Part shown: one piece after another, positions 10,575 through 31,593 of the stretch
Position numbering within the stretch: position 1 is the first letter of the stretch
How the letters are laid out: the number at the start of each line of letters is the position of its first letter
Source: Methanomassiliicoccales archaeon
GTDB taxonomy: Archaea > Thermoplasmatota > Thermoplasmata > RBG-16-68-12 > SOIM01
Assembly (NCBI GenBank): GCA_004377185.1
Contig: SOIM01000058.1
Span: 67,828-131,827, forward strand
Direction: 5' to 3'
DNA: 64,000 bases
The notes under the pieces: generated by a model
The model's database searches: none
The model's input: the letters and a program-made list of their open reading frames with translations, nothing else
What the model was told of the DNA's origin: nothing
Made by a program: the position numbers and the translations under genes

Positions 10575-10586
10575 TTGTTCACCTCC

Positions 10587-11711: not shown

Positions 11712-12148
11712 TTCCTCATCCTCCTCTCCAGGTTGATGAATTCGCTCCTTTCGAAGCCTATTGATTTGAAGAATGCAAGCAGGTCGCTCGAATCCCATCT
11801 CACGGCTGTGAAAATCCTGTTTATCCCCTTTGAGTTGAAACCTCTGAGCATGGCCTTTCCGAGCTTCTTGCCAATCCCTTGACCCATGTAGTTGGGATCG
11901 ATACCCACATCCACGAGCCAGCCGCTCTTGGTGACACCGAAATCCAGCGTCTTGGTCTCCCCTATGATGAAGCCCACTACCTTCTTGCTGAATGTTGCCA
12001 CAAAACATTGATTATCACTCTCGAGCAGACGAATGGCGATCTCGTGCTGCCAGAACTTGGGCACCTTCTTCTTGGTTATGGATTCTCTTATGGCTATGGT
12101 TGCCGGGATGTCTTTCTCCCTCATCCTTCTTATTTCTACAGTGCTCAT
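11708..12148 (-). CDS. GNAT-family N-acetyltransferase
   Basis: 146 aa, GNAT-family fold. GAGGTGGGGG SD. Confidence 0.8.
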   Translation of the reverse strand: MSTVEIRRMREKDIPATIAIRESITKKKVPKFWQHEIAIRLLESDNQCFVATFSKKVVGFIIGETKTLDFGVTKSGWLVDVGIDPNYMGQGIGKKLGKAMLRGFNSKGINRIFTAVRWDSSDLLAFFKSIGFERSEFINLERRMRK

Positions 12149-12497: not shown

Positions 12498-15400
12498 TCA
12501 GCCTTCCACATCTTCCAGCATTTCGGGCCCCTTGGGTTCTTCTTCTGGAGGGGGTGGTGTCTCTTCCTCCGCAGGTGCTTCGGCTGGTTCTTCCGCAGGT
12601 GCTTCGGTTGGTTCTTCCGCAGGTGCTTCGGTTGGTGCCTCTGCCGGTTCTTCCGGCGGTGGCGGGAGTTCCTCTTCGGCAGGGGGTACCTCTGCAACCT
12701 TCGGCTTTCTCCTCAGCATAAGGCCAACCACAGCAACCACCACTACGATGACGATTATCAAGACAAGTAGCCACCAGTATTCCTCCAAGAAGGACGGAGC
12801 AGCTTTCTCTGCTACTGTGATAGTGCCCTGGACCTCGTTCCAATTACCATTCTCATCGCGAGCGGAGATCTTGTAGTCGTAGTCTCCCGCCTCGTCAAAG
12901 GAGAATTCGTACCCGTACACACCTCCACCCAAGTCATCCATAGATCTGTTGGACAGAACGATTAGGGCATCTGAAACCCTGACAATCTCAATACGTACCC
13001 TGTCCACACCGCTCGCATCGTCGACAGTTGCTTCGAATGTGACAGTTTCCCCGGCCTTTGGTTTCTCTGGGTCAACCGTAACATCGATTGTGGGAGGCGT
13101 CAGCTCACGAATATCGAAGCCTCCAGAAGCTGAAGCCCAATTGTCGCTCGTATCGTTCGCCCAGATTACGAAAGTGTACTCTCCTTCGATATCGAAGTCG
13201 ACTTCATAGTAGTATTCGTCGTCGCCAATGTCATACCTCATTGAGTAGTTTCCCACCTCCTCGCCGTCCGGGTCGGTGATGTTAACCCACACTTCGTCGA
13301 CTTGAACATTGTCCTGCACTGTTGCGGAAATCCTTACGTCCTCGCCCGGGGCTTGCGGATCGGGTTCTGCTTTTTGATCCGTTATTGTCGGACTTTGGGT
13401 ATCAGGTGGCGCACGAATTATTAAATCAACACAGGCGGTAAATGATACGTTGTGGTTAGGCACTTCATCCCATCCATGGACGCATACTTGATACGTTCCA
13501 AGCGCCATACCAGAGGTATAGATTGTGACGTTCACGTCCTCAGAAGGTCCGTCGAACGCCCCATCCAACGGGAACATAGGTGTGGTTGTGAGCCAATCTC
13601 TCTCGATGGTGTAGTTCGCTCCAGCGATATTCGACCCTAGTGCCGGATTGTCGTCGATCGTAGCGTTCAGGTAGACTGTTGTACCGGGCCAGACAGTGGC
13701 GGAAATCGGGTCCTCATTCAAAAGAACGCTCAGGACGTATGGAGGTTTATCATCCACGGAAGAGATGTTCAGTATGGCACATGCACCAATCGAATTGTAG
13801 TTCGGGACATCATCCCAACCGTACACGCAAACCTCATAGTCAGCATCCGCCCAACCAGTGGTGTCGATGAAACTTGGGGTAGAGGTCACGTCTTCGGTGA
13901 AGGTATCAAACGCACCATCCGCGGCCTGCAACGGTACACTGGTGAGCCAATCGCCATCTATTGTGTAGTTTGCTCCTTGGATTGCGGTACTTCCTCGACC
14001 TCCAGTGTCGTCCACCGTTGCATTGACAAAAACTGAAGTATCAGGCATAACAGAAACTGTTGGCTGACCATTCAGTGTAACGCCTGCCACGGCAGGGTCG
14101 ATATCATCAAGAACGATTATCTGAACTGCAGGTGCCGAGTCATTATAGTTCATATCTACGTCCCAAGCGTGCACATAGTAATCGAAGACACCAACTGAAG
14201 TAGGCACAAGAATGTTGGCGGTCACATTCTCCGTGGGTTGGTCGAACGACATGTCCACTGGGAACATATCAATCCCTGGCCAAAAATCAACCAGAGGCGT
14301 TGTGTAGTTGGCCCCCCAGACTACTGAAGAACCGGTAGTGGTATCATCTATTGTGGCGTTCAGAGTGGCTGTGGCCGGAAGTGTGGACAGCAAGAAAACT
14401 GCAGACGGTCCACCATCTATCTCGATATTGCTGATTTGTGGTGCCAGATCATCCAGGACAGTGACAGATGTGCATGAACCCGTGGTGTTGTAGTTCGGAA
14501 CTATGTCCTGGCCGTACACACAGTAGATTGTTGTTCCAACTGGAGGTGTGATCACCGCGGTAACATCTTCGGTGGGCGAATCAAACATGCCATCCGCTGG
14601 ATTCATGAGAGTGCTGGTCGCCCAGTCTTGAACACCGATCGTATAGTTCGCACCACCAATGGGCAAGTTGCCCGTTCCGCTATCATCGATTGTCGCGTTC
14701 AAATATATGACTGGAGGAATATTGGAGAGGTCGTAGATTGGATTCATTTGACCATTAATCCTCACATTCAGTACCTGAGGGGCGTTCGTGTCAGGAGCAC
14801 CTTGGCCGGCAGTCAGATTGACCCACACGTAGTCAATCGTATCGAACGGATCCGGGTCCATCAGAGGGTCGACCACGAAATTCGGAGTGCCTATGCCACT
14901 TATAGAAACATTGACAACTGGGTCATAGCCCCAAAGATTGAAGCCCGCGGGCAACAGCCCATTGAGAATGTTCCTCTCCGCATCAGTATCATAGGTCGTA
15001 TTTATCTCAAGTCTGTGCGTGCTGGCAACGGGTATGGTTGTGTTGGAAGTGAAATTCGCTACCATGAGACCCGAAGGAGGATTTGGGGATACGACCGAAC
15101 CCAACAAATCAAAGATGAATGAGTCTGTGCCTGGGACCAGATCATAATGGATTCCATCCACATAGAATTGGTCAATTGTGGTCGAGAAAATCGGGGGCGC
15201 AGCGCCACCAGACATAAAAAGGAAAACATCCAATTCAGTCTGGTTGACAAAGCCGTCCCTGTTCCCGACCACCATGTCTATCATGAACCTCATCGATTGG
15301 TTGTCCACCCCCATTTCAAACCTCGTATCGGAAACAACGTTATCCCAGTCGGTCATCACCAGGGTCGTATTCATTAGGTCAGCAACTGGCAATTCAAGCG

Positions 15401-17546
15401 ACCTTGTGACCTCAGCAGAGCCAACAACAGATGTCTGGGATATGTTAGACTGCAAATCCCAACTGTCTATGAGCACAAAGAAGTCTCCGTCAAATACCGT
15501 GACCTCATAATAGCCCGTGGAGTTGGAGGTTGTCTGCATCATCCAGCCGTAGGTGCCGTTCAATACGACGATGTCAGCCATATCCACGGAAGACCCGCTG
15601 GTTGCATTATACACATATCCCCATATGGTCGCTGGCGGGAGGGACAGAAAGTCAGCAGCGAAGTAGAGACCTGTCATATGCATGTCCGAATCGAGGAAAA
15701 GAGGTCCCATCGGATCGAAAGACATCAAATTCATGAAGACGAAATATGGTCCGTCCGCTCCATGTCTGCTTATGTCTATCCCGCTGAATCTGAGAGGAAT
15801 GAATGTGGCCCCAGCACTGAGATTCGCAATCTGCTGAGCCCCGGTAATCGGCATGAAAAATGGGTCCAACAGCGTAGCAACGACCGCATACCACCCGGGA
15901 TCGTTCACAAGAATCGAAGCATTTACGACCAAGAAATCATACACACCGTCCGGAGGAGCGTCTATGTCCAGGGCGTAGTCACTGTGGGGAGGATTGAAAA
16001 GCGCTGCAGGCAAGTCGAAATCTGTTGCGAGATATAGCTGGGTCAGGAAGGAGTCCGAATCAAGTGTGAGAAACATCATATCAAGGACATCGAGGAACAC
16101 AAGATAGGGGCCATCAATTCCAGACATAGAGATGTCCGAGCCCGGGAACAGAAGATCCACCGTCTGTGAACCGATATCCAGCCAGGTTGAGTTCGTTGCT
16201 GACGTGATGAAGAACATTCCAGTTTGGTCGTACAAGTATCCCCAGACAGTATAACTGCCGGGAGCGTCCACGGTGAGGTTTGCGTTCACCACCAGGAAAT
16301 TGTAGTCCGAATCACCATCAGTGTCGAGCCCATAGTCCCAGTGCGGTGGAGAGAATGCACATGGAGGATTGGGCTCAAAATCGGTGAACAGATATGCGGC
16401 TGTGACGTGCGTGTCGCTGTCAAGCAGATTCCAGAACTCATCATAGAGATTGAGGTCTATCAGGTAGGGTCCATCCACTCCAAAATTGAAAATCTGGAAA
16501 CCGTAGAACTTCAAATCAACTGTCTGGATTCCCGTTGAAAGATAAGTCACATTCTGGGTCCAACCGAAGGCGGTGGACCCGTCCACACTGTAATTCCCTG
16601 CAGTGGTCACATCTACGCTGGCAGTGACAACGAGGAATTCATACAGAAGATTCCCGTTTGTATCCCAGCCCCAATCACTATGTGGCGGCAAGAAAGTCGC
16701 AGGTGGGAATGCGAAATCGGTTGCCAAATACGGGTTCGTGAAGTAGGTGTCGTTGTGCAAGAAATTGAACATACTGTCATACAAGTAAAGGTCAACCCTG
16801 TACGGTCCATCAATACCAGAACCGCGAATAAGATACCCCAAGAAACCGATGTCGACGGTGTGCGTGCCAACGGTCAGGAAGGTGAAATTGACCTGGAAAT
16901 CTATGAATGTCATTCCAGTAGCGTCAAGAAGCGTCGCATCGAGCTCATAGTTGCCTGAGACGTTGACGGTCACCTCCGCACCTACGACGAGAAGGTCCCA
17001 CAGCATATCCCCATTGTTATCGATGCCCTGATCCGAGTGGGGAGGGGTGAAGTAGGCGTCCGGACCTTCGAAATCGGTCGCCAAATAGGCGCTTGTGGTA
17101 TGAGTGTTAAGATCCAAAGGCATGAATAAATCGTCAAACAACACCACCTCGACTTGATAGGGGCCGTCATAGCCAGATTGACGGATTATGAACCCAGGGA
17201 ACTTCACATTTATCCATTGGGCTCCAAGACCTAGATCGGCCATTGCAAATTGGCTGTCTATCATGATCATTCCCGAGTTGTCATAGAGGTTACCTATGAG
17301 ATAGAAGATTCCAGCGCCTGTTACATCAACGCTCGCATTCACAATGAGTTCGTCATAGAGGCCGTTTGGCGGCATATCAGTATCCACGGCCTGGTCCGAG
17401 TGGGGAGGCGTAAAACTCCCGCTCGAGGCGCCCACGATGCCAGCAATCCCAGAGAACACACCGAAGACCATGAATGCCGCTATCGTCAGCACAAACATTC
17501 TTCCGGCTCGCTCACTAGAGGGTTTTGAACAGGTTGCATCTTTCAT
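12498..17546 (-). CDS. Giant cell-surface protein: signal peptide, about 7 tandem ~95-aa beta-sandwich repeats, further Ig-like/PKD-like domains, C-terminal TM helix and acidic Pro/Glu-rich tail
   Basis: Start at M10 (ATG 17546) with GGAGGAAG SD; 1682 aa from this start (the track ORF from GTG 17573 is 1691 aa). Hydrophobic signal MFVLTIAAFMVFGVF. Recurring FTPPHSD...DGPY...LYD repeats. WANDTSDNW-type domains. Tail WWLLVLIIVIVVVVAVVGL then (AEEPTEAP)n. Many N-x-S/T sequons. Confidence 0.8.
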   Translation of the reverse strand: MKDATCSKPSSERAGRMFVLTIAAFMVFGVFSGIAGIVGASSGSFTPPHSDQAVDTDMPPNGLYDELIVNASVDVTGAGIFYLIGNLYDNSGMIMIDSQFAMADLGLGAQWINVKFPGFIIRQSGYDGPYQVEVVLFDDLFMPLDLNTHTTSAYLATDFEGPDAYFTPPHSDQGIDNNGDMLWDLLVVGAEVTVNVSGNYELDATLLDATGMTFIDFQVNFTFLTVGTHTVDIGFLGYLIRGSGIDGPYRVDLYLYDSMFNFLHNDTYFTNPYLATDFAFPPATFLPPHSDWGWDTNGNLLYEFLVVTASVDVTTAGNYSVDGSTAFGWTQNVTYLSTGIQTVDLKFYGFQIFNFGVDGPYLIDLNLYDEFWNLLDSDTHVTAAYLFTDFEPNPPCAFSPPHWDYGLDTDGDSDYNFLVVNANLTVDAPGSYTVWGYLYDQTGMFFITSATNSTWLDIGSQTVDLLFPGSDISMSGIDGPYLVFLDVLDMMFLTLDSDSFLTQLYLATDFDLPAALFNPPHSDYALDIDAPPDGVYDFLVVNASILVNDPGWYAVVATLLDPFFMPITGAQQIANLSAGATFIPLRFSGIDISRHGADGPYFVFMNLMSFDPMGPLFLDSDMHMTGLYFAADFLSLPPATIWGYVYNATSGSSVDMADIVVLNGTYGWMMQTTSNSTGYYEVTVFDGDFFVLIDSWDLQSNISQTSVVGSAEVTRSLELPVADLMNTTLVMTDWDNVVSDTRFEMGVDNQSMRFMIDMVVGNRDGFVNQTELDVFLFMSGGAAPPIFSTTIDQFYVDGIHYDLVPGTDSFIFDLLGSVVSPNPPSGLMVANFTSNTTIPVASTHRLEINTTYDTDAERNILNGLLPAGFNLWGYDPVVNVSISGIGTPNFVVDPLMDPDPFDTIDYVWVNLTAGQGAPDTNAPQVLNVRINGQMNPIYDLSNIPPVIYLNATIDDSGTGNLPIGGANYTIGVQDWATSTLMNPADGMFDSPTEDVTAVITPPVGTTIYCVYGQDIVPNYNTTGSCTSVTVLDDLAPQISNIEIDGGPSAVFLLSTLPATATLNATIDDTTTGSSVVWGANYTTPLVDFWPGIDMFPVDMSFDQPTENVTANILVPTSVGVFDYYVHAWDVDMNYNDSAPAVQIIVLDDIDPAVAGVTLNGQPTVSVMPDTSVFVNATVDDTGGRGSTAIQGANYTIDGDWLTSVPLQAADGAFDTFTEDVTSTPSFIDTTGWADADYEVCVYGWDDVPNYNSIGACAILNISSVDDKPPYVLSVLLNEDPISATVWPGTTVYLNATIDDNPALGSNIAGANYTIERDWLTTTPMFPLDGAFDGPSEDVNVTIYTSGMALGTYQVCVHGWDEVPNHNVSFTACVDLIIRAPPDTQSPTITDQKAEPDPQAPGEDVRISATVQDNVQVDEVWVNITDPDGEEVGNYSMRYDIGDDEYYYEVDFDIEGEYTFVIWANDTSDNWASASGGFDIRELTPPTIDVTVDPEKPKAGETVTFEATVDDASGVDRVRIEIVRVSDALIVLSNRSMDDLGGGVYGYEFSFDEAGDYDYKISARDENGNWNEVQGTITVAEKAAPSFLEEYWWLLVLIIVIVVVVAVVGLMLRRKPKVAEVPPAEEELPPPPEEPAEAPTEAPAEEPTEAPAEEPAEAPAEEETPPPPEEEPKGPEMLEDVEG
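12571..12666. repeat. 24-bp tandem coding repeat x4 (gcaggtgcttcggttggttcttcc) encoding the (AEEPTEAP)n tail of the giant surface protein
   Basis: Four head-to-tail 24-nt units read directly from the sequence, with 1-3 substitutions each. Confidence 0.8.
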
Positions 17547-17716
17547 CCACGCTTCCTCCAAACCTTTTCCCACGTTGTCAAATGCTTTATCTATTAAAAT
17601 CTTGGCTTCTCAATTCCCATTTGAATAACTGACCATTCTCGCATATCTCGCAGCGAAATCGCTTTTCCAAAACAATAAATATCGCTGTTGGCTTACGCCC
17701 GCATGGGAGGAGTGAT

Positions 17717-18670
17717 ATGGGAAGTTTCGAACCAAAACCAGCTGAAGAATTCGACTTCAAGGACATAATCTACGAGAAGAAGGACTATGTGGCAAAGGTC
17801 ACGATAAACCGGCCCCAGGTGTACAACGCCTACAGTATTCTGGCACTGAGAGAGATGGCCGAGGCCTTCAAAGACGCTTCCTGGGACGATTCGGTCGCGG
17901 TCCTGGTTCTGACGGGAGCTGGGGACAAGGCATTCTGTACAGGGGGGGACGTCAAGGAATACGCAGACAACTATACTGTTAAACCGAGGGACTTCTGGAA
18001 ATGGATGGGCGACTACACTCTGGCACATGACATGCTGAGGAACTGTGGGATACCCACAATCGCAAGGGTGAACGGGATTGTTGCAGGGGGAGGGAACGAA
18101 TTCCACATGTCCTGCGATCTTTCCATTGCCGCAGAGCACGCGGAGATACTCCAGGTCGGGACCAAGGTTGGATCAGTAGCGGCTGGAGGAGCCACTCAGT
18201 TCCTTCCAATAATGGTTGGAGACCGAAGGGCGAGAGAGATTCTCTACCTTTGCGAGAAAATCCCGGCGAAGAAAGCGCTCGAGTGGGGACTGGTGAACGA
18301 GGTTGTTCCGTACGAAGAACTGGATGCTGCGGTTGACAGGATGTGTAAGAAGCTCATAGACAAGTTCCCGGAGTGCATGAGATACACCAAACAGCAGGTC
18401 AATTTCTGGAAGGATCTGGCCTGGCACTCGACGATAGGACATGCAAGGGATTGGCTGTCCATACATTTCGCAAGCTACGAGCCCTGGGAAGGGATGAAAT
18501 CCTTCGTGGAGAAGAGAGAGACCGGATACCGCAAGTTGAGGGACCTGGCAGCTCAAGGCAAATCATCGGAGTTCGTTTGGGGACCGTACACAAAAGAATG
18601 TGGCAAGTGTGGTGCCAAGGGCATTCCCGAGGAGTTCGGGTACTGCGGCAAGTGCGGGGAGAAACTCTGA
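17717..18670 (+). CDS. Enoyl-CoA hydratase/isomerase (crotonase) superfamily enzyme of the MenB/BadI type with a C-terminal CxxC...CxxC zinc-ribbon extension
   Basis: AFCTGGDVKEY, IARVNGIVAGGGNE and FVEKRE crotonase motifs. C-terminus ECGKCGAKGIPEEFGYCGKCGEKL. GGGAGGAGTG SD. Confidence 0.85.
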   Translation: MGSFEPKPAEEFDFKDIIYEKKDYVAKVTINRPQVYNAYSILALREMAEAFKDASWDDSVAVLVLTGAGDKAFCTGGDVKEYADNYTVKPRDFWKWMGDYTLAHDMLRNCGIPTIARVNGIVAGGGNEFHMSCDLSIAAEHAEILQVGTKVGSVAAGGATQFLPIMVGDRRAREILYLCEKIPAKKALEWGLVNEVVPYEELDAAVDRMCKKLIDKFPECMRYTKQQVNFWKDLAWHSTIGHARDWLSIHFASYEPWEGMKSFVEKRETGYRKLRDLAAQGKSSEFVWGPYTKECGKCGAKGIPEEFGYCGKCGEKL

Positions 18671-18671
18671 C

Positions 18672-19913
18672 TCATTCCTTTTTTCTCTTTCTCAGACCCA
18701 AGCGATTCGCCTTCTTGTAAACGAGGAGAATGCCCACTCCCAACAGAATGACAGCGAATACTATGAGGATGGTCAATTCGGGCAATATCTCGCCCAGCCC
18801 CCATCCTCTTATCATCACGGACCTCAAAGAACTGGCCAAATAGGTGAGGGGGATGACAGAGGATATCGGTCTGACAACCTCAGGCATGGATTCGATGGGC
18901 CACAAGATCCCTGCCAACATTATCGAAGGAACGATTACGAGTGGCACGAATTGAATCGCCTGGAACTCGTTCTTCGCCAGAGTGGAGAGCAGTATCCCAA
19001 GACCCAGTATGCCTATTGCATAAAGGACTATCAAGGCCAGGGCGAGAAGGATGCTCCCAACGAACGTGATATTGAACAGGAGGCTGGCTACTAGCAGCAG
19101 CTCAACTGACTGAAAGAGCGCAATGACGCTAAAGGTGACAGTGTAGCCAAGAACGATGTCACTTGGTTTTATCGGCGAGACGAAGAGTCTGTCAAGCGTG
19201 CCGTTCGTTCTTTCCCTCACAAACGAGACGATTGTGAGTATGACTGTAATCATGGTGACAACCAGGCCTATTATGCCAGGGGCGAAGAAATCTATGAACC
19301 GTACATTCTCCCCGTAAACGAAGTCTTTCGTGATGAAGGAAGTGAAGGATATGTTTGGGCTCCGCTCTTCAATGGTTTGGGTGAAGGCAAAGCCAACTTC
19401 GGCGATCACCTTGGCCGCAACCTGAGTATTGCTTCCGTCCACGTACAAGGTTATGTTCGAGTCCTCGACCGGGACCGCATTGAAACTGACATCAGCATCA
19501 AGGAACTCTGATACATTCCCCAGAACGCTAGCCCAGTTCAGAATACCTTGAGTGAAATGAGGAGGGAAATAGATGACAGCCCAGGCCTTTCCGTCCTTGA
19601 CTTCGTTCAACGAAACGTTCAAGTCGTCCTTATAAACAAGATTGAAGGTCTTCGGGTCGAGATTCTCGATGAAAAGATCGGACACAGTCACAGTCTGAGT
19701 GTAACTGGACCCGTCAATGTGGAAAGTCACTTCCGCACCTTGATCCGCGTTTACCAATATCGTTCGGATGTTCTCAGGTTCTCCAGCGAAGGTAAAACCA
19801 AAGAGAAGAATGAAGATGATCGGCATCATCACTATCATTCCAAGTGTCCTTTTGTCGTGACTTATCTGCCTGAAGTTGTTCCTTGCGACAGCAAGGATAG
19901 CGCGTGCACCCAC
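18672..19913 (-). CDS. ABC-2 type transporter permease with a large extracytoplasmic loop
   Basis: GTG start at 19913 overlapping the ATPase TAG stop (TAGTG). N-terminal TM, about 200-aa loop, C-terminal multi-TM bundle. Confidence 0.8.
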   Translation of the reverse strand: MGARAILAVARNNFRQISHDKRTLGMIVMMPIIFILLFGFTFAGEPENIRTILVNADQGAEVTFHIDGSSYTQTVTVSDLFIENLDPKTFNLVYKDDLNVSLNEVKDGKAWAVIYFPPHFTQGILNWASVLGNVSEFLDADVSFNAVPVEDSNITLYVDGSNTQVAAKVIAEVGFAFTQTIEERSPNISFTSFITKDFVYGENVRFIDFFAPGIIGLVVTMITVILTIVSFVRERTNGTLDRLFVSPIKPSDIVLGYTVTFSVIALFQSVELLLVASLLFNITFVGSILLALALIVLYAIGILGLGILLSTLAKNEFQAIQFVPLVIVPSIMLAGILWPIESMPEVVRPISSVIPLTYLASSLRSVMIRGWGLGEILPELTILIVFAVILLGVGILLVYKKANRLGLRKRKKE

Positions 19914-20635
19914 TAGCCTATCCTCCTGACGTAGTGAAGAAATGCGTCCTCCAATGACTGGGTGTTCGTCTTCTCCTTCAACTGATCTGGCGTTCCGACC
20001 GCCACGAGTTTGCCTTCCCTTATCATTCCCACCCGGTCGCATCTACTTGCTTCATCCATGTAGTGGGTTGTGAGCAGTACCGTCACACCGTCCTCCGTCA
20101 GATCACGGAAATACTCCCAGAACGATGTTCGAAGCTCGGGGTCCACACCGACTGTCGGTTCGTCCAGGAAAAGGAGCTCAGGTTTGTGAATCAGACTTAC
20201 AGCCAATGACAGCCTGTGCCTCATACCCCCGCTTAGATTGGAGACCATCTCTTTCCGTTTGGCCTTCATGTCTACGAAAGCTAGCAACTCTTCTTCTCTC
20301 TTCTCCATCTCCTTCTTTCCCAGCCCGTAAATCTCCCCGAAGAAGCTTATCGTCTGACTTACAGTCAGGTCTGGATAGAGAGCAACTTCCTGGGGCATGT
20401 AGCCGATTCTCGGGAAAATGCTGGGATCAGGGATCCTGCACCCGAGCACGTATGATTCGCCAGACGTTGGCCGGAGCAACCCAGAGAGAATCTTGATAGT
20501 GGTTGTCTTGCCCGAGCCATTGGGTCCTATGAAGCCGTAGATCTCCCCCTTCTGGATCTGGAGGTTCAATCTATCCACAGCTCTCAGTTCCCCGAACTTC
20601 TTGACCAGGTCTTTGGTGACTACCACTTGCTTCAT
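19913..20635 (-). CDS. ABC transporter ATP-binding protein
   Basis: Walker A GPNGSGKTT, signature LSGGMRHRL, Walker B LLFLDEP. Confidence 0.9.
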   Translation of the reverse strand: MKQVVVTKDLVKKFGELRAVDRLNLQIQKGEIYGFIGPNGSGKTTTIKILSGLLRPTSGESYVLGCRIPDPSIFPRIGYMPQEVALYPDLTVSQTISFFGEIYGLGKKEMEKREEELLAFVDMKAKRKEMVSNLSGGMRHRLSLAVSLIHKPELLFLDEPTVGVDPELRTSFWEYFRDLTEDGVTVLLTTHYMDEASRCDRVGMIREGKLVAVGTPDQLKEKTNTQSLEDAFLHYVRRIG

Positions 20636-20667
20636 TTCAATCCTCTGCTATCCTAAAGGAAGTCCAA

Positions 20668-21792
20668 CTAATCAGCAGACGGAAAGGATGATATCAATCT
20701 TTGCGCTTTCTCAAGGACCTTCTTCGTCTCCGAAATAACGACTGGATCCTCGGTTTGAAAGATGGTGGGATCATCGAAGAGTTCCTCTCCGGGGTCCTCT
20801 CTTGCAAGGTCCCTGAACAGGTTCTTCCAATTCTCCGAAAGGTATATGGGTGGATTGGCCTCGATCATCCTGCAGAACAGTATGGTCCATATTCTTGAGA
20901 CGGCCTTTGAGGAGTAGCCTCCTCCGCCCAGGCATACCCACTTGCCATCACACACCTCATGGGCGACCTCGTGAAATGTCTTTGCAGCTTCGTCATATGA
21001 TTTCGTGGTCAGATTGATGTGGCTGAGAGGGTCGTCATAATGCATGTCCACCCCGAACTGAGTGATCAGGATCTCGGGTTTGTATTTCCTGGCCAACTCT
21101 GGGAACGTTCCCCCAAAGATTCTCAAGAAGGTCTCGTCATGGCTATTCGGCCAGACGGGGAGATTGAACGTGTAACCTTTCCCCTTGTCCTCGCCTATCT
21201 CATCCACTGAACCGGTACCAGGATATAGGAACTTCCCGCTCTCGTGTATCGAGAAGTTGAGGACGCCAGGGTCGTCACAGAGAGCTACTTGTACGCCGTC
21301 CGCGTGGTGTGCATCAATGTCAGCATACATGATTCTCTTCAACGAGTACTCCTTCTGAAGGTGCCTGACCGCGATGACCACATCATTATAGATGCAGAAG
21401 CCGGAAGCCCTTCTTCTCAAAGCGTGATGGAAACCTCCGCCCGGGGAGAACACATGTTGGGCCTCGCCATTCAGGACCATGTCGCAGGCCTTGAGGGTAG
21501 CACCAGTGTGCAGAGCCGATGCCTCATGCATTCCTTCGAAGACGGGGTTGTCCCCCAGCCCAAAACCAAAGCGAAAGGAATCGAAATGATGTATACCAGA
21601 TCCAAGGTCCTTGACAACGCTCACATAGTCCTCATCGTGCGCGAGAAGCAACACCTCGTCATCCACGATATTGGGATTCACCAGCTTTACGTTCGAGCGA
21701 TCGAGCAGACCGATGTCCTTGATCAATTCAAAGGCAAGCTTCATTCTAACTTGGCTGAGAGGATGAAAATCGCCAAAATCATATTTCAACAA
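20668..21792 (-). CDS. Histone deacetylase/acetoin-utilisation AcuC-family amidohydrolase
   Basis: HDAC-fold motifs GGGFHHA, DIDAHHADG, GGGGY. The track start is TTG. The conserved N-terminus appears to extend upstream (DYAIIYSDG) to an in-frame TGA with no canonical start in between. Confidence 0.8.
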   Translation of the reverse strand: MLKYDFGDFHPLSQVRMKLAFELIKDIGLLDRSNVKLVNPNIVDDEVLLLAHDEDYVSVVKDLGSGIHHFDSFRFGFGLGDNPVFEGMHEASALHTGATLKACDMVLNGEAQHVFSPGGGFHHALRRRASGFCIYNDVVIAVRHLQKEYSLKRIMYADIDAHHADGVQVALCDDPGVLNFSIHESGKFLYPGTGSVDEIGEDKGKGYTFNLPVWPNSHDETFLRIFGGTFPELARKYKPEILITQFGVDMHYDDPLSHINLTTKSYDEAAKTFHEVAHEVCDGKWVCLGGGGYSSKAVSRIWTILFCRMIEANPPIYLSENWKNLFRDLAREDPGEELFDDPTIFQTEDPVVISETKKVLEKAQRLISSFPSAD

Positions 21793-21854
21793 ACCGTCAG
21801 AGTAGATGATAGCGTAGTCTGCCAGTCCTCACACCTCTCGGGTTCTGCTGGGTA

Positions 21855-22286
21855 CTACAAACGGATTGCGTATATAACTCTGTCACCCTCCAATTCTTTC
21901 AAAACGACGCTCACGTCCTGACCTACGCTGATGTCCTCTTCCTTCGCCTCGTCCAGCCATCCGAGAAGTCTTCCTCCGCCCTCCAGTTCAACCATGCAAA
22001 TCGTGTAGGGCACAACATCCTCGAAACCGGTTGGCCCGACATGTATTGTGGTGTATGTGACGATCTTACCCTTGGACTCCATGTCCATCCATTCCACGTC
22101 ACTGGACATGCACTGATCACAATCGGCCCTGGGAGGAAAATGAAGCGCACCACAGCTCTTGCACTTGGTCCCTGCCAACTTCCCCTTCTCCAAATAATCC
22201 AGGTATTCCTTCGTTTTTGTTGCGGTAACAAAGCTAACCTTACCCAACTCCAGTGTCATCTCATCACCTCGAATATATGTTGACAA
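21855..22286 (-). CDS. DUF35 Zn-ribbon/OB-fold protein (thiolase partner)
   Basis: CKSCGALHFPPRADCDQC rubredoxin-like knuckle plus OB fold. Directly downstream of, and overlapping, the thiolase gene as in archaeal thiolase-DUF35 pairs. Start could be M1 or M10. Confidence 0.75.
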   Translation of the reverse strand: MSTYIRGDEMTLELGKVSFVTATKTKEYLDYLEKGKLAGTKCKSCGALHFPPRADCDQCMSSDVEWMDMESKGKIVTYTTIHVGPTGFEDVVPYTICMVELEGGGRLLGWLDEAKEEDISVGQDVSVVLKELEGDRVIYAIRL

Positions 22287-23421
22287 AGCAATATTGGCCG
22301 ATCCCTCCGACGTTGTGAGTCAGAACCAATTCAGCCCCGTCCACTTGCCTCTTTCCAGCCTCCCCTCGGAGCTGCTTCACAGCTTCCACTGTCATGGAAG
22401 CACCCGTCGCGCCCACCGGATGACCTTTTGCCTTCAATCCTCCATCCACATTAACTGGCATCTTTCCGTCCCTGTAGGTTTGGCCCTCATCAATGAGCTT
22501 GGATCCTTCTCCCTTCTTCGCGAGCCCGATGTCCTCGTATGCGATTATCTCTGCAATGGTGAAGCAATCATGAACCTCAGCCAGATGCAAGTCCTTTGGT
22601 TCAACCTTGGCCTGTTCGTACGCTTGCTTGGATGCTTCCACTGCACTGGGAATCGAATTCAACTCCTTTCTCCTCAGGACGGACATTGAAGCTGAAGCCG
22701 CACCCATCCCTTTCAGCCAGATCGGAGTATCGCTGATGCTCTTTGCCTTGCTTTCCTCGGCAACAATCACACAAGCGGCCCCGTCCGCGTTCCCACAGCA
22801 GTCGTACAGCTTGAGCGGTGAAGCCACCGGTCTTGACCCAAGTGCTTTCTCCAGCGTTATCTCCTTCTGGAACATTGCGTTCGGGTTGTGCAATCCATGA
22901 GCATGGTTCTTGACCGCCACCTTTGCCATCTGTTCTTCCGTGGTTCCGAAATCGTGCATGTGCCTCCTGGCGTACATCGCGTAGTAGCCCGGGAAAGTGG
23001 TCCCAAAAACGGATTCCCACTGGACGTCTCCCACTCTTCCCATAAGCGCCAGGATCTCGGGTGTCGTCAGTTCCGTCATCTTTTGGGCGCCGACAACAGC
23101 CATGATATCATAGATTCCAGCCTTGATGTATGCAACCGCATTGTGCAGGGCGGCGCTGCTTGAAGCGCAAGCGGCTTCTGTCAGATATGTCATCTGAGGA
23201 TTCATTCCCAGATACTCCGCCACCACACCCGGCAACGACCTCTGCTTGTGGTACTCCGGAGATGATCCTATCACAGTGGCTCCAATATCTTCCTTCGACA
23301 GACCCGAATCGTCAAGTGCTTCCTTGAAAGGTTCGAAAGCGAGCTCTTGGACGGTCGCGTCATCTCTCCTGCCAAACTTGCCATGACCTATTCCTACTAT
23401 TCCAACCTTCACATCAATCAC
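22264..23421 (-). CDS. Thiolase-domain protein (acetyl-CoA C-acyltransferase, archaeal SCP-x type)
   Basis: 385 aa with thiolase active-site context (AACASSSAAL, CCGNADGAA, HNVGGIG). GTG start abutting the SDR stop. Confidence 0.9.
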   Translation of the reverse strand: MIDVKVGIVGIGHGKFGRRDDATVQELAFEPFKEALDDSGLSKEDIGATVIGSSPEYHKQRSLPGVVAEYLGMNPQMTYLTEAACASSSAALHNAVAYIKAGIYDIMAVVGAQKMTELTTPEILALMGRVGDVQWESVFGTTFPGYYAMYARRHMHDFGTTEEQMAKVAVKNHAHGLHNPNAMFQKEITLEKALGSRPVASPLKLYDCCGNADGAACVIVAEESKAKSISDTPIWLKGMGAASASMSVLRRKELNSIPSAVEASKQAYEQAKVEPKDLHLAEVHDCFTIAEIIAYEDIGLAKKGEGSKLIDEGQTYRDGKMPVNVDGGLKAKGHPVGATGASMTVEAVKQLRGEAGKRQVDGAELVLTHNVGGIGQYCFVNIYSR

Positions 23422-24165
23422 CTAAATGTATTGACCACCATCAACCTTGATAACTTCGCCAGTGATGTGCTTCGCCTTTTCGGTGCAGAGGAAAACAACC
23501 GCGTTCGCCACATCCTTTGGCTCTCCTAATCTTCCGAACACGGTCTCCTCTTTCGCTATGTTCAAGAACTTCTCAGGGATCTGCAACATCATATCTGTCG
23601 CAATCATACCGGGTGCAACTGCATTCACGTTCACACTGGACCTGCCCAGTTCCTTCGCCAAGCTCTTGGTTAGGGCTATTATGCCTCCCTTGGAAGCAGA
23701 ATAGTTCGTCTGACCGAACTTCCCCCTCAGACCATTGATGGACGTGATGTTCACGATCTTTCCGTGTCCCTGCTCCTTGAATATTGGAGCGGCAGCTCTG
23801 ACGTAGTTGAAATAGCCCTTGAGGTTGACCTCGATTACGCGGTCCCACTGCTCCTCGGTCATCTTCCATATGACTCCGTCCCAATTGATGCCGGCGTTGC
23901 AGACGAGGATATCCAGTCCTCCGAATTCTTTGACAACCTGGTCCACCATCTTTTGGGCGTCATCGAAAGAAGAAACATCGGCCTGTACGACCAGACCTTT
24001 CCTGCCCAGTTTCTCGACCTCGGCAATGACTTCCCTTGCCTCGGTGTCATGCTTTCTGAAGTTCAACGCTACGTTCGCACCCGCTTCCGCGAGAGCGACT
24101 GCCATCGCGGCCCCTAGTCCCACACTTCCTCCTGTGACGATCGCATTCCTGTTTTCGAGTTCCAT
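23422..24165 (-). CDS. Short-chain dehydrogenase/reductase (3-hydroxyacyl-CoA or 3-oxoacyl reductase type)
   Basis: TGGSVGLG Rossmann motif, NAG, YSASK catalytic tetrad. 247 aa. Confidence 0.9.
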   Translation of the reverse strand: MELENRNAIVTGGSVGLGAAMAVALAEAGANVALNFRKHDTEAREVIAEVEKLGRKGLVVQADVSSFDDAQKMVDQVVKEFGGLDILVCNAGINWDGVIWKMTEEQWDRVIEVNLKGYFNYVRAAAPIFKEQGHGKIVNITSINGLRGKFGQTNYSASKGGIIALTKSLAKELGRSSVNVNAVAPGMIATDMMLQIPEKFLNIAKEETVFGRLGEPKDVANAVVFLCTEKAKHITGEVIKVDGGQYI

Positions 24166-24251
24166 TCCTACCCCCTCGACCTAAGAAATTCTTTATAGAC
24201 AATCACTGATAATGCGCTACCTTTATTAAAGATTTTGAGGAGCGGGAAGAA

Positions 24252-25148
24252 GTGGCTCGAAAAGAAAAGGTTATGGAAGCTGGTGATGCGGTCAGTAAGT
24301 TCGTCAAGGACGGATGTTTGCTCGCGGTCGGAGGGATGCACATGCACAACAACGCAATGGCAGTGATAAGGGAGATAGTCAGGCAGAAGAAGAGTATCGG
24401 AAGTCTGACGACCAGTCCCTCGGCCTGTACGAACGCTGACATGCTTATTGGTGCCGGCTTGGTCGGAGAGATATACTGTTCGTACGTGGGATTCGAACAT
24501 CTGGGTTTAGCTCCCAACTTCCGGAAGTCTGCTCAAAGTGGTGATTTGAAAGTGAGAGAGTGTGATGAGGCCTTTTCGGTCTATTCGCTGAGAGGAGGAG
24601 CAAGTTCCCTTCCCTTCCACCCGCTCCCCAAGGGGCTGGAAGCGACCTCAGTGCCGAAACTCAATCCAGATGACTACAAGTTCACAAAGGACCCGTTCAC
24701 GGGCGAGGACGTGATGTGTGTCAGGTCACTGCAACCCGATGTTGCCGTCATTCACTGTCAGAAGGCGGACGCGTACGGGAACGCGATATTCGAGGGGAGC
24801 AAGTTCACCGATTTTGACATGATCAAAGCAAGTGACAAGGTGATAATCCAGGTAGAGGAGGTGGTTCCGACCGAATACATACTGGAAAAGACGCACAAGG
24901 TCAACGTGCCAGGCTTGCTGGTCGATGCGGTCATAAACGTTCCGTTCGGCTGTCACCCCACCGCCTCCCACAGATATTACACCTATGACGAGGACCATTT
25001 GAAGGAGTACCTGAAAGCATGCAAGGAGGACTTCTCGGCCTATCTTGACAAATATGTCTACGGACCGAAGACGAACGAGGATTACCTGGAGGTGATTGGG
25101 GGAAGGGAGAAGGCCACCAAGCTCATGGAGCGTGATATCCCATGGTAG
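24252..25148 (+). CDS. CoA-transferase subunit A (glutaconate CoA-transferase GctA-like, family I)
   Basis: GTG start with GAGGAGCGGG SD (the ATG at 24273 is an alternative). GctA-like fold. Coupled to subunit B. Confidence 0.85.
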   Translation: MARKEKVMEAGDAVSKFVKDGCLLAVGGMHMHNNAMAVIREIVRQKKSIGSLTTSPSACTNADMLIGAGLVGEIYCSYVGFEHLGLAPNFRKSAQSGDLKVRECDEAFSVYSLRGGASSLPFHPLPKGLEATSVPKLNPDDYKFTKDPFTGEDVMCVRSLQPDVAVIHCQKADAYGNAIFEGSKFTDFDMIKASDKVIIQVEEVVPTEYILEKTHKVNVPGLLVDAVINVPFGCHPTASHRYYTYDEDHLKEYLKACKEDFSAYLDKYVYGPKTNEDYLEVIGGREKATKLMERDIPW

Positions 25149-25888
25149 AAATCACGGTCGCAGAGAGAATGGTTGCCGCAATGTCGCATCATCTCAAAGA
25201 CGGGGAAGTGGTCATCATGGGAGCTTTCAGTGCGTTGCCGATGCTCGCAAGTAGGTTGGCGCAGCTCACGCACGCACCAAACGTGTCATTCATTTGCGGT
25301 GGAAGCGGTGCCGTCAATCCCACGCTCGAACCTCTGCCAGAGTCCTCTTGTGACGACAGGCTTCTGAGAGCTGAGTGCATTTATGCGCTACCGGATGTGA
25401 TTGATCTGGAAGCAAGACCTGAGATCGATGTCTTCTTTGCCGGTGGCCTTCAGATAGATGCAAAGGGAAATTGCAATCTTGTTGGGATCGGAAAGCCAGG
25501 AGAGATAAAGTTCAGAGGACCTGGTTCAGTTGGCCTTCCATTCTTGTCCCGCGCGGGCAGGTACATAATCTACACAATGGCACACAATGTAAGGAATTTC
25601 GTTCCTGAAGTGGACTTCATAAGCGGACCTGGGTTCGTGGATAATGAACTGCTCAGCGATGGCCCCTCATTGGTGATCACTCCTCTCTGCGTGATGGACT
25701 TTGAGGACAAGAAAATGAGACTGAAATCGACCCATCCAGGTGTAACGGTCGAAATGGTCAAGGAGAACACTGGTTTTGAGATAATCGTCCCAGAGGACGT
25801 GGGAGAGACGCCTGCTCCAACCGATGAGGAGTTGGAGATTATGAAACGTTTGGATCCCTCAGGAGCTGCAAGAGATTCCATCAGATGA
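25142..25888 (+). CDS. CoA-transferase subunit B (GctB-like)
   Basis: ATG overlaps the subunit A stop (ATGGTAG). GctB-like fold. Confidence 0.85.
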   Translation: MVEITVAERMVAAMSHHLKDGEVVIMGAFSALPMLASRLAQLTHAPNVSFICGGSGAVNPTLEPLPESSCDDRLLRAECIYALPDVIDLEARPEIDVFFAGGLQIDAKGNCNLVGIGKPGEIKFRGPGSVGLPFLSRAGRYIIYTMAHNVRNFVPEVDFISGPGFVDNELLSDGPSLVITPLCVMDFEDKKMRLKSTHPGVTVEMVKENTGFEIIVPEDVGETPAPTDEELEIMKRLDPSGAARDSIR

Positions 25889-25893: not shown

Positions 25894-27561
25894 TCACTTC
25901 TGTCTTGGAACCCGGTAATATTCCTCCTCGGGAGGCTTCTTCCTGAGAACGAGATATAGAACCAGGGCGGTAAGGACCGCACCCACAATTGCCACAATTA
26001 TCAAAGCCAGAGTGACACCGGGGACACCTGGAAGTCCATCAGGGGGAGGATGAGTTCTCGCCACAGTCACCGGGCCACCACTGATTGCTGTGTGTGAACT
26101 GAAGTCATCGGAGATGACTGCTTTGATGTAATAGCTTCCTTCGTTAACCAAAGAGACGTTCCAGATGTAGTAGTCGCTGACGTCATCCTCACTGACCGTG
26201 ACCAATTCCGTAAGAAGGGAAGGCGAGCCGGCTGGATAGTAGTACAGTTGGATTGTCGCATCACTGTCCGGGTCAAAGTCCACCCATTCGATCCGGAACT
26301 CATGTTCCACTGTGTCATTGTCTCCATCTGGCTCCGCAACGAATATGGATGGTGGCACATCTGAGATCAGAACGGTGAAAATGTTGCTACCAGGAACCAC
26401 TGCCGCGATATTGGTGAATCCCTCTTTCCCAAACTCAAGGTCTGCAAGAACGAAGGACTCCGCCCAACCATCAATCGGTATCTCAATTCTATCGTAGGTT
26501 GAAGTTGCGTTGTTGTAGTACAGTATGGTCAATAATTGAGGTTCACCCCAGCTACTGCAGAGTATGTCCTTGAACCCGTCCAGATCCGCGTCCCCCACGA
26601 CGAGAGAGACCGAGTTGGTGTTGTTGATGGGATTGGATGTCTGGAAAGGAAAATTCCCCGTGCCGTCATTCTCAAGGACCCATACATCGCCGTCATCTTT
26701 GCAGAGCACCACGATATCTAGAGAAGAGTTTCCGGTGACATTCTCAAGATACACATCCCACGGCGATCTGCCAACGTTATAATCTCTGTGACTGGCAAAA
26801 ACGCCTGCTCCGTTGTTGAAGAGAACGGTTACGTTGTTATCGTCCCTGTTGGCTGTTACCACATCATTAAAGCCGTCACCATTCAAATCCGCCACGAAGA
26901 CGCTGTGGGGATCCGCGCCAACCGAGTAGTTGGTGGGGAGAGAGAAAGAGCCAGAACCATCGTTGAACAGAACGGAAACCGAATTGGATTCCCCTCCGTT
27001 CGCGGTTATGATGTCGATATCATTGTTGCCGTCCTCTCCCAGATCCGCAAGGAAGACGGCCGCTGGATCGTCACCCACGGGATACTGCTGGAAGGCTGAG
27101 AAGGACCCGTCCCCGTCGTTCAAGAGAACAGACACGTAGTCGAAATACTCGCTGGGGGGACCGACGGTATCTATCTCCACGCGGGAGACCGCCAGGTCAA
27201 TGTAACCGTCCCCATCGAGGTCCGCGGCGTCAATGCTCCTCGGCTCCTGGCCGACTGAATATGTCCATTTTACGTCCTCAAAGGTTCCATTGCCGTTGTT
27301 GAGTGCGACTGAGACCGAGCTAGCGTTCCTATTGACTGTTATCAGATCGAGATGTCCATTGCCGTTGAAATCGTCAGCCACAATGTCCCAAGGAGAGCGG
27401 CCCACTTCCACGTCGACTTGGGCGATGAACAAGTCACCCCTATCTGCAAACGAAGCGCTGGGAAGAAGCACAAAGCACACGCACAGGATTAGAACGAGTA
27501 AAGATGCCCTCTTTGATATCAGTGAAAGATGTTTTGCACACCTCTTGGCTGCCAATGTCAC
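25894..27561 (-). CDS. FG-GAP/VCBS-repeat beta-propeller surface protein with signal peptide, C-terminal TM anchor and short acidic tail
   Basis: Repeated DxNGDGxxD/FG-GAP-like units (ADFNGNGHLD, ADLDGDGYID, ADLNGDGFND, GDADLDGFKD). Signal LLVLILCVCFVLLPSASFA. C-terminus LALIIVAIVGAVLTALVLYLVLRKKPPEEE. Start is GTG 27561 or TTG 27555. Confidence 0.8.
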   Translation of the reverse strand: MTLAAKRCAKHLSLISKRASLLVLILCVCFVLLPSASFADRGDLFIAQVDVEVGRSPWDIVADDFNGNGHLDLITVNRNASSVSVALNNGNGTFEDVKWTYSVGQEPRSIDAADLDGDGYIDLAVSRVEIDTVGPPSEYFDYVSVLLNDGDGSFSAFQQYPVGDDPAAVFLADLGEDGNNDIDIITANGGESNSVSVLFNDGSGSFSLPTNYSVGADPHSVFVADLNGDGFNDVVTANRDDNNVTVLFNNGAGVFASHRDYNVGRSPWDVYLENVTGNSSLDIVVLCKDDGDVWVLENDGTGNFPFQTSNPINNTNSVSLVVGDADLDGFKDILCSSWGEPQLLTILYYNNATSTYDRIEIPIDGWAESFVLADLEFGKEGFTNIAAVVPGSNIFTVLISDVPPSIFVAEPDGDNDTVEHEFRIEWVDFDPDSDATIQLYYYPAGSPSLLTELVTVSEDDVSDYYIWNVSLVNEGSYYIKAVISDDFSSHTAISGGPVTVARTHPPPDGLPGVPGVTLALIIVAIVGAVLTALVLYLVLRKKPPEEEYYRVPRQK

Positions 27562-31584: not shown

Positions 31585-31593
31585 AACAACTGC

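Follow-up and report, generated by a model that had tools for sequence, protein, structure and literature searches.

In a 64,000-nt stretch of contig SOIM01000058.1 from an uncultured Methanomassiliicoccales archaeon (the window), two widely conserved, uncharacterised protein families appear to stand in for textbook enzymes of anaerobic aromatic degradation. They are ECH318, a crotonase with a zinc ribbon, and CoTAB, a two-subunit protein with the CoA-transferase fold. The chances are about even that the span encoding them (17717–25888), the reductase operon at 7279–12008, and a medium-chain dehydrogenase/reductase (MDR) gene at 28333–29463 specify a variant of the lower benzoyl-CoA (aryl-CoA) pathway, in which two canonical enzymes would have been replaced non-orthologously. 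A wider proposal is held more tentatively: a zinc-ribbon crotonase that replaces Oah in ring cleavage, and an alpha/beta enzyme of the CoA-transferase fold that no longer transfers CoA and serves as a hydratase or C-C hydro-lyase instead of the crotonase-type dienoyl-CoA hydratase, may form an alternative aryl-CoA ring-opening route found from Thermoplasmata to Dormibacterota.

Genes were identified from an open reading frame (ORF) list and from Pfam and NCBIfam scans, and coordinates are positions in the window. The genes on which the proposal rests are as follows.

17717–18670, + strand: ECH318 crotonase, 317 aa, Pfam ECH_1 188 bits, motif AFCTGGD
24252–25148, + strand: CoTA, alpha subunit of a GctAB/IpdAB/AibAB-like pair, Pfam CoA_trans (PF01144)
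25142–25888, + strand: CoTB, beta subunit of the pair, PF01144
28333–29463, − strand: Zn-dependent MDR dehydrogenase, Had-like, NCBIfam TIGR03201 best match
7279–12008, − strand: Bzd-type class I benzoyl-CoA reductase operon, Pfam HGD-D twice, BcrAD_BadFG twice, and Fer4
10587–12008, − strand: BzdN, NCBIfam equivalog 507.2 bits, cut-off 453.8
9261–10574, − strand: BzdO, NCBIfam equivalog 675.8 bits, cut-off 448.6
8457–9257, − strand: second ATPase, generic activase model only
7572–8453, − strand: BzdQ, NCBIfam equivalog 446.8 bits, cut-off 380.2
about 7279–7569, − strand: ferredoxin, Fer4

CoTA and CoTB both match PF01144 (83.6 and 59.9 bits), and their genes share a 7-nt overlap. The best solved matches of CoTA in a PDB search were GctA (127 bits), IpdA (87 bits), and AibA (83 bits); those of CoTB were AibB (84 bits), GctB (75 bits), and IpdB (60 bits). 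CoTB has G53-G54-S55-G56 where GctB has V-E54-S-G, and the catalytic Glu54 is replaced by Gly. The GGSG motif is invariant in a 21-sequence alignment and present throughout 120 CoTB homologues. S68-S69-C70 of CoTB is likewise invariant, and D71 is nearly so. CoTA has E106 in 77 of 77 family members, and E82 and H83 are also invariant. A single residue distinguishes the IpdA structures 6co6 (Glu, 6co6_A) and 6coj (Ala, variant 6coj_A), and E106 aligns with it. The aligned position is Gln in GctA and Gly in AibA. We take the aligned Glu to be the catalytic Glu105 of IpdA, which is reported to be essential (Crowe et al., 2018, PNAS). CoTAB therefore has both diagnostic residue features of IpdAB, the beta Glu-to-Gly replacement and a conserved alpha Glu. 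Glu54-beta of glutaconate CoA-transferase corresponds to Gly57-beta in IpdAB of Rhodococcus jostii RHA1, and IpdAB with this Glu-less pattern has no transferase activity (PMC5380842). A tblastn search of plasmids with CoTB returned only families about 40% identical.

A paralogous GctAB-like pair is encoded on the same contig, 5.5–7.3 kb past the left edge of the window. Its beta subunit keeps the Glu (YEYG) and its alpha subunit has Asn at the 106 position, which is the canonical transferase pattern. The paralogous pair adjoins genes for a two-subunit 2-oxoacid:ferredoxin oxidoreductase, an aminotransferase, and an aldehyde:ferredoxin oxidoreductase (AOR). CoTAB is very unlikely to be an ordinary CoA-transferase because the beta Glu is lost family-wide, the alpha Glu is invariant, and the paralogue shows the opposite pattern. 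A preliminary description of this DNA had cast CoTAB as a GctAB-type transferase for CoA recycling, and these residues contradict it.

Transferase activity could still be envisaged as acid activation or CoA recycling by a working GctAB-type enzyme, perhaps with alpha-E106 as nucleophile, or as intramolecular dicarboxylyl-CoA transfer of the ThnP kind. ThnP, a Glu-less family I enzyme, shifts CoA intramolecularly (PMC11659651). Membership of both subunits in PF01144, the high GctA score of the alpha subunit, and an AMP-forming CoA ligase gene immediately after CoTB in Peptococcaceae CEB3 point the same way. However, the family-wide Gly, the inactivity of IpdAB as a transferase, and the canonical pair already present on the contig all argue otherwise, and transferase activity does not account for the exclusion between CoTAB and Dch-like hydratases described below. 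This explanation is highly improbable.

ECH318 represents a distinct, highly conserved family of about 318 aa, separate from MenB, BadI, and Oah, because it scores below every equivalog cut-off for these enzymes. Its top three NCBIfam matches were BadI, MenB, and Oah at 204, 200, and 193 bits. The cut-offs lie far higher for BadI (TIGR03210, 204.1 versus 467.6), MenB (NF005637, 199.8 versus 380; TIGR01929, 190.1 versus 342.7), and Oah (TIGR03200, 192.6 versus 464.45), and only the N-terminal half of ECH318 aligns well with the Oah model. The best solved relatives in the PDB search were MenB enzymes. ECH318 shares 41% identity with a PGAP-annotated BadI and 39% with Escherichia coli MenB; between this BadI and MenB the figure is 52%. 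The 120 homologues listed are 65–97% identical and 309–357 aa long, mostly 317–322 aa. Their hosts include Thermoplasmata, Thorarchaeota, Heliophilum, Armatimonadota, Acidobacteria, Chloroflexi, NC10, and others.

The residues of ECH318 also set it apart. Its invariant E128 (GGGNE) occupies the first catalytic Glu position known from true hydratases; that position is Val in MenB and in BadI (GGGNV in BadI). The Asp and Tyr of MenB and BadI are missing: MenB D163 corresponds to Ala155 and MenB Y258 to Phe251, next to which stands an invariant His250. The PGAP-annotated BadI has KVGSVD and LYY where ECH318 has KVGSVA and IHF. A C-terminal CxxC-x11-CxxC ribbon (C295, C298, C310, and C313; extension about 281–317, nt 18556–18670) is found in 120 of the 120 homologues listed, and no solved crotonase aligns past residue 275 of ECH318. 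By analogy with the DUF35 ribbons of thiolase complexes, it might, as speculation, dock ECH318 to a partner. A MenB or menaquinone role was ruled out by the scores, by the absence of the catalytic Asp and Tyr, and by the lack of men genes in the window; a grouping with naphthoate synthases, which the preliminary description had named as a refutation, is not seen. No second crotonase was found in the window.

Genome comparisons place both families in a recurrent setting. A CoTB-seeded scan of species-representative genomes gave 80 loci (numbered with L here), and the 53 of at least 12 kb were counted. CoTA was found in 52 of the 53 and a short-chain dehydrogenase/reductase (SDR) gene in 49 (within 10 kb and mostly adjacent). 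An ECH318 orthologue (at least 45% identity) was present in 36/53 and a four-subunit reductase in 26/53; median identity was 66% over all 40 ECH318 matches in the CoTB-seeded loci. The operon order N-O-ATPase-ATPase-ECH318-CoTA-CoTB-SDR recurs in Dormibacterota, Actinomycetes, Chloroflexota, and Acidobacteria. In a Dormibacterota metagenome-assembled genome (MAG; L090, 3947–11505), eight genes follow a TetR regulator and encode two HGD-D subunits, two ATPases, ECH318, CoTA, CoTB, and a BadH-like SDR, with 4-nt overlaps at five successive junctions. This reductase is Bcr-like (BcrC 310 bits and BcrB 230 bits, both below cut-offs), and the top family of the SDR is BadH (301 bits). A search of the accessible literature found no description of class I reductase-like systems in Dormibacterota, or of a reductase-ECH318-CoTAB operon. 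Bacillota loci (Heliophilum, Peptococcaceae CEB3, and others) encode reductases 64–70% identical to BzdN and BzdO of the window, together with a GltD-like protein, a CoA ligase, a thiolase, and a Had-like MDR. In Heliophilum fasciatum the two CoTAB subunits are naturally fused in one alpha-beta protein. Close Thermoplasmata relatives share the exact gene order of the window, and distant ones retain DUF35-thiolase-SDR/CoTAB(-MDR).

An ECH318-seeded metagenome scan gave another 80 loci, of which 34 of at least 12 kb were counted. A reductase was found in 20/34, an MDR in 19/34, and a small crotonase in 23/34, with CoTAB in only 2–3 of the 34. The usual order is ECH318-MDR-ech-N-O-A-A. In L102, the MDR has Had as its top family (250 bits), the small crotonase has Dch (181 bits), and the reductase is Bcr-like. 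In 16 loci elsewhere, ECH318 is the immediate neighbour of a Had-like MDR, a Dch-like hydratase, and a four-subunit reductase. No second MenB-like crotonase was found in these ECH318-seeded loci; ECH318 therefore occupies the Oah position of canonical clusters. By gene position ECH318 is the best candidate for an Oah/BadI-type ring hydrolase, which is the part of the earlier MenB/BadI-like assignment that stands; membership in the BadI, Oah, or MenB families does not.

CoTAB and Dch-like hydratases exclude one another. Among 55 pooled loci with ECH318 and a reductase, 33 have CoTAB only, 16 have a Dch-like hydratase only, none has both, and 6 have neither (Fisher's exact p = 2.5e-9, a value that ignores relatedness and covers about 10 kb on either side). 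Bcr-like reductases are found with either state (28 and 15 loci). CoTAB has an SDR alongside in 31/33 loci, and Dch has an MDR in 17/22. Reductase and ECH318 form the constant core, and the variable partner is either Dch with Had or CoTAB with SDR. Because CoTAB never co-occurs with a Dch-like hydratase in the 55 loci, its most likely role is hydration of the ring, either as a substitute for Dch or within ring opening.

The two roles may be exchanged: ECH318 would hydrate the dienoyl-CoA, CoTAB would open the ring, and the 3-oxoacyl-CoA product would be cleaved directly by thiolase/DUF35. The IpdAB diagnostics of CoTAB (PMC5380842) suit this assignment, as does the gene order ECH-CoTA-CoTB(-SDR), which parallels echA20-ipdA-ipdB with SDR genes. 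In Sterolibacterium denitrificans, IpdAB-like genes adjoin genes for a BbsA-like (DUF35) protein and an SCP-x type thiolase, as here (PMC6678751). ECH318 carries the Glu typical of hydratases and neither the Asp nor the Tyr of BadI and MenB. If cleavage of an unsubstituted ring released an aldehyde, the products of the nearby AOR genes could take it up. However, ECH318 is the sole candidate ring hydrolase in the 16 Dch-type loci, which lack CoTAB, and ECH318 orthologues that are 50–70% identical would have to differ in function between the two locus types. The similarity of CoTB to IpdB is also the lowest among its three solved relatives. The exchange is judged unlikely.

CoTAB may instead be an AibAB-like, cofactor-free glutaconyl-CoA decarboxylase that receives its substrate from a non-decarboxylating glutaryl-CoA dehydrogenase, with the SDR as 3-hydroxybutyryl-CoA dehydrogenase and thiolase/DUF35 as acetoacetyl-CoA thiolase in the final pathway steps. 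The top PDB match of CoTB is AibB of Myxococcus xanthus, a 3-methylglutaconyl-CoA decarboxylase, and AibAB belongs to the Gct family and has no catalytic Glu (PMC7756340). The SDR matches acetoacetyl-CoA reductase at 247 bits, and the thiolase reaches 371 bits with a model of an archaeal acetoacetyl-CoA thiolase (Methanothermococcus thermolithotrophicus, cut-off 600). Acyl-CoA dehydrogenases of the window score 345 bits against a non-decarboxylating glutaryl-CoA dehydrogenase model, and an acyl-CoA dehydrogenase gene abuts CoTAB in several Actinomycetes loci. However, AibA has Gly where CoTA has the invariant E106. The AibB Cys56 position is Gly in CoTB, and the nearby Cys52 is mostly Ala across the family. 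Invariant polar residues (alpha E82/H83/E106 and beta S68/S69/C70) fit poorly with the nearly residue-free mechanism of AibAB, and the window has no HMG-CoA synthase, LiuC, or AibC neighbours. Decarboxylation also leaves unexplained the strict exclusion with Dch-like hydratases and the tight translational coupling of ECH318, CoTA, and CoTB. In view of the alpha-Glu comparison and the Dch exclusion pattern, we consider this reading quite improbable.

Chance proximity is a further explanation, in which the SDR, thiolase/DUF35, CoTAB, and crotonase would be general housekeeping genes of short-chain acyl-CoA, fatty-acid, or mevalonate metabolism. Thiolase/DUF35 pairs are common as archaeal acetoacetyl-CoA thiolases, and the thiolase here passes a generic subfamily model only. 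Genes for an ABC exporter, an HDAC-family protein, and surface proteins, which are unrelated, lie in between, and ECH318 is not near CoTAB in distant Thermoplasmata loci. However, in Bacillota, Dormibacterota, Actinomycetes, Chloroflexota, Acidobacteria, and archaea, ECH318 and CoTAB accompany four-subunit reductases, and the genes often overlap within one operon. No HMG-CoA synthase gene is adjacent. The clustering is not by chance because the same families recur together in other phyla, and we give the housekeeping explanation almost no weight. There is a functional link between the span and the reductase, which is a genuine class I enzyme of the Bzd type, as BzdN, BzdO, and BzdQ pass their equivalog cut-offs. 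Dozens of loci spread over several phyla also have ECH318 and CoTAB next to four-subunit reductases. This agrees with the preliminary description, which had linked the toolkit to the reductase.

The proposed route places ECH318 at the Oah position and CoTAB at or near that of Dch. Family identities, residue patterns, and synteny were observed directly, and from them we infer substrates and steps. The reductase, whose enzyme family is established, would yield a cyclic dienoyl-CoA. CoTAB would then hydrate the ring enoyl or dienoyl thioester with alpha-Glu106 as base and no CoA transfer, replacing Dch in a step likened to the hydration part of IpdAB catalysis. With just one crotonase in the window, another enzyme that adds water is needed. 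The hydroxyl product would be oxidised to a 6-oxo compound by the Had-like MDR, the SDR, or both. ECH318, via Glu128, would hydrate this 6-oxo compound and open the ring hydrolytically in an Oah-like reaction. The SDR and thiolase/DUF35 would oxidise and thiolyse a product of the 3-hydroxy-/3-oxopimelyl-CoA type, and acyl-CoA dehydrogenases and the ADP-forming synthetase would complete the route. The hydration and ring-opening roles could be exchanged, and the route presumes that ECH318 orthologues keep a single function.

Several points weigh against this route. For both families the evidence consists of sequence and synteny. ECH318 falls far short of the Oah model, and the overall similarity of CoTAB to IpdAB is no greater than to GctAB or AibAB, which does not indicate orthology with IpdAB. 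The exclusion statistic has the limits given above; many of the pooled loci come from Dormibacterota or Actinomycetes, and a partner missing within about 10 kb could lie elsewhere in the genome. Distant Thermoplasmata (L011, L014–L016, and L018) have no ECH318 within 10 kb of CoTAB. Heliophilum and other Bacillota clusters combine CoTAB, a Had-like MDR, and a generic crotonase, so CoTAB is not a one-for-one swap everywhere. An old yellow enzyme (OYE) flavoprotein resembling 2-naphthoyl-CoA reductase (NCR), encoded near the reductase, hints at other aryl-CoA substrates.

The remaining genes of the span and those expected to act downstream are as follows.

18672–20635, − strand: ABC-2 type exporter, permease and ATPase, Pfam ABC2_membrane_3 and ABC_tran
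20668–21792, − strand: HDAC/AcuC-family deacetylase-like gene, Pfam Hist_deacetyl 287 bits
21855–22286, − strand: DUF35 protein, zinc ribbon and OB fold, Pfam zf-ChsH2 and OB_ChsH2_C
22264–23421, − strand: SCP-x/archaeal-type thiolase, NCBIfam NF004720, 487.5 bits, cut-off 420
23422–24165, − strand: FabG-like SDR, Pfam adh_short
29479–31584, + strand: ADP-forming acyl-CoA synthetase, Pfam and NCBIfam
31594–32733, − strand: acyl-CoA dehydrogenase, Pfam and NCBIfam
47858–48997, + strand: second acyl-CoA dehydrogenase, Pfam and NCBIfam
from 63189, running off the window end, − strand: EtfA, at the position given in the preliminary description

All the genes that the preliminary description had named (the crotonase, SDR, thiolase, DUF35 protein, CoA-transferase pair, dehydrogenases, synthetase, and EtfA) were found at the coordinates it gave. 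Its interpretation is partly supported, being right on the pathway and on the likely role of the crotonase and wrong on the CoA-transferase.

The span holds three transcription units: the crotonase alone (+), SDR-thiolase-DUF35-HDAC-ABC (−), and the CoTAB pair (+). CoTA and the SDR gene are divergent with an 86-bp spacer, and the thiolase and SDR genes abut with zero gap. The SDR scores 273 bits against FabG and is proposed as a hydroxyacyl-CoA dehydrogenase. The thiolase is proposed as a 3-oxoacyl-CoA (3-oxopimelyl-CoA) thiolase, and the DUF35 protein, which matches BbsA weakly (46 bits, cut-off 250), is its partner. No HMG-CoA synthase gene lies beside the thiolase and DUF35 genes, as it would in the archaeal thiolase/HMG-CoA synthase/DUF35 complex; the flanks are the SDR and HDAC-family genes. 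In Thermoplasmata, the DUF35 protein is conserved together with thiolase, SDR, and CoTAB at 45–87% identity. The earlier assignment of the SDR and thiolase/DUF35 to beta-oxidation steps remains plausible. The top family of the MDR is Had (TIGR03201, 252 bits, below the cut-off of 339), and the MDR is kept beside CoTAB in Thermoplasmata and Bacillota at 54–88% identity. The order of the synthetase and the adjacent acyl-CoA dehydrogenase (29479–32733) is kept in close relatives L007 and L010, and the two are proposed to serve downstream beta-oxidation and ATP conservation.

Other genes interrupt the cluster. A gene for a 1,691-aa surface protein (12498–17573, − strand) stands between the crotonase and the reductase operon. 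Its product is acidic and repeat-rich and carries a transmembrane helix at the C-terminus as well as a Pro/Glu/Ala tail. At 25894–27561 (− strand) lies a gene for a 555-aa protein with FG-GAP repeats, and the two together break up the catabolic genes. The related locus L019 lacks the large surface-protein gene between BzdN and ECH318. The ABC-2 exporter occurs at the same position only in the close Thermoplasmata relatives L007, L009, L010, and L019, and nothing was found that links it to the pathway. The HDAC/AcuC-family gene is near the module in only 4 related loci. In an Armatimonadetes locus, a GNAT acetyltransferase gene lies between the reductase and ECH318 (L003, 9528–10004). Together, the HDAC gene here and this GNAT gene might point to regulation of the pathway through lysine acetylation.

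The listed ferredoxin ORF (199 aa, 7279–7878, − strand) overlaps BzdQ by about 300 nt, and its Fer4 match covers residues 116–190. The actual ferredoxin gene is probably about 96 aa long (7279–7569) because the Fer4 match is confined to the final 85 or so residues of the ORF. Two further genes lie near the reductase operon.

2468–4459, − strand: NCR-like OYE flavoenzyme, OYE and pyridine-nucleotide-disulfide oxidoreductase domains, best PDB match 6QKG
4733–7231, − strand: GltD-like 2Fe-2S/4Fe-4S oxidoreductase, 832 aa, DUF7508 tail, adjoining the reductase operon

The OYE gene is two genes away from the reductase operon. Its product matches NCR (6QKG) over the full length at 530 bits and E. 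coli 2,4-dienoyl-CoA reductase at 253 bits. The enzyme could belong to the type III aryl-CoA reductases or act as a dienoyl-CoA oxidoreductase, and this would bear on the substrate of the Bzd-type enzyme. A GltD-like protein of the same architecture is encoded directly upstream of CoTA in the Bacillota loci L023, L029, L057, and L091 (828 aa in L091, 6596–9082), and the window protein is probably a BzdV-like ferredoxin-reducing partner. Both enzymes are likely partners in electron supply or ring reduction. Beyond the left window edge, 0.6–7.3 kb past position 1 of the window on the same contig (L173, 3221–12388), lies a gene group resembling an entry module. It encodes a two-subunit 2-oxoacid:ferredoxin oxidoreductase (635 and 203 aa), an aminotransferase, a ferredoxin, a second AOR, a ThiS-like protein, and the GctAB-like pair. 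The architecture of the oxidoreductase is indolepyruvate oxidoreductase (IOR)-like, and the group looks like an entry module from aromatic amino acids to aryl-CoA with a genuine CoA-transferase.

The window was compared with known systems. The Dch-Had-Oah pathway (BzdW-X-Y/BamR-Q-A; Thauera, Azoarcus, and Geobacter) likewise has a class I Bzd-type reductase, a ferredoxin, a BzdV-like GltD-type oxidoreductase, a Had-like MDR, a MenB-clade crotonase at the Oah position, and beta-oxidation genes thereafter. However, the window lacks a Dch-type crotonase and has the Glu-less CoA-transferase-fold pair instead, and its crotonase belongs to a separate zinc-ribbon family. The EchA20/IpdAB/IpdF/FadA6 module for steroid rings C and D (Mycobacterium tuberculosis and R. 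jostii RHA1) shares a MenB-like crotonase, one or more SDRs, a thiolase, the ECH-A-B order, and a GctAB-like pair with beta Gly and the conserved alpha Glu. By score CoTAB is not an orthologue of IpdAB. It is partnered with an ATP-dependent aryl-CoA reductase where IpdAB has steroid genes, it occurs in anaerobic archaea and bacteria, and the accompanying crotonase has a zinc ribbon. In the BadK-BadH-BadI system of Rhodopseudomonas palustris, BadI is the top NCBIfam match of ECH318 and BadH that of the adjacent Dormibacterota SDR. However, ECH318 lacks the Ser-x-Asp aspartate and the Tyr, has Glu for the BadI Val, and is accompanied by no BadK-type crotonase in the window. GctAB of Acidaminococcus fermentans has the same fold, subunit sizes, and Pfam family as CoTAB, and differs in its catalytic Glu54-beta.

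A comparable combination occurs in the thn operon of N47 and NaphS2, which degrade naphthalene. It encodes both a class I reductase and an aryl-CoA reductase of the OYE type, along with hydrolases of the crotonase type (ThnL) and ThnP, a family I CoA-transferase without the Glu, and it too has no oah homologue. Equivalence with this operon, prompted by the OYE-NCR match, was rejected: ThnP is a single-chain Cat1-type protein, the second ring is opened by AtuA-like lyases, and the thn gene table contains no GctAB-type pair.

Look-alike clusters were seen on plasmids. R. jostii RHA1, a genetically tractable host, carries an aerobic one on pRHL3 (L089, 178943–187749) that encodes a thiolase, an OB-fold/DUF35 protein, an acyl-CoA dehydrogenase, an ECH, a MenB-like ECH with GGGNE, an SDR, and a fused 603-aa CoA-transferase. 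The MenB-like ECH is 42% identical to ECH318 in pairwise alignment. The pRHL3 transferase was ruled out as a member of the CoTAB family, as it keeps the Glu (AEIG) and lacks the alpha Glu. Plasmids of the aerobes Cupriavidus and Paraburkholderia (L086 and L087) carry a PGAP-annotated badI in clusters with the gene order OYE-type 2,4-dienoyl-CoA reductase, (CoA ligase), SDR, badI, crotonase. These badI clusters and the window share one logic, in which an OYE enzyme and an SDR are combined with a crotonase of the MenB clade.

Steps past ring reduction are often left unassigned in anaerobic aromatic degraders, and bamA/oah serves as the marker gene. Metagenomic papers routinely call sediment archaea and bacteria aromatic degraders from bcr/bzd genes alone (PMC9239135, bioRxiv 763623). 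MAG studies of Thermoplasmatota and Asgard archaea cite reductase genes and leave the downstream steps unresolved. Cultured carriers include Heliophilum fasciatum DSM 11170, Paradesulfitobacterium ferrireducens, and Desulfosporosinus sp. I2, and CP070767.1 and CP070629.1 are among the carriers with complete or nearly complete genomes. If the proposed route is correct, ECH318 and the Glu-less CoTAB would be two new markers of anaerobic ring cleavage, and the widespread annotation "glutaconate CoA-transferase" would be corrected. IpdAB-type chemistry would extend from steroid catabolism to aryl-CoA metabolism. On the wider proposal, this would be just the second documented ring-processing use of the CoA-transferase fold after IpdAB, and the two families would supply a missing link for many MAGs that encode a benzoyl-CoA reductase and lack bamA/oah.

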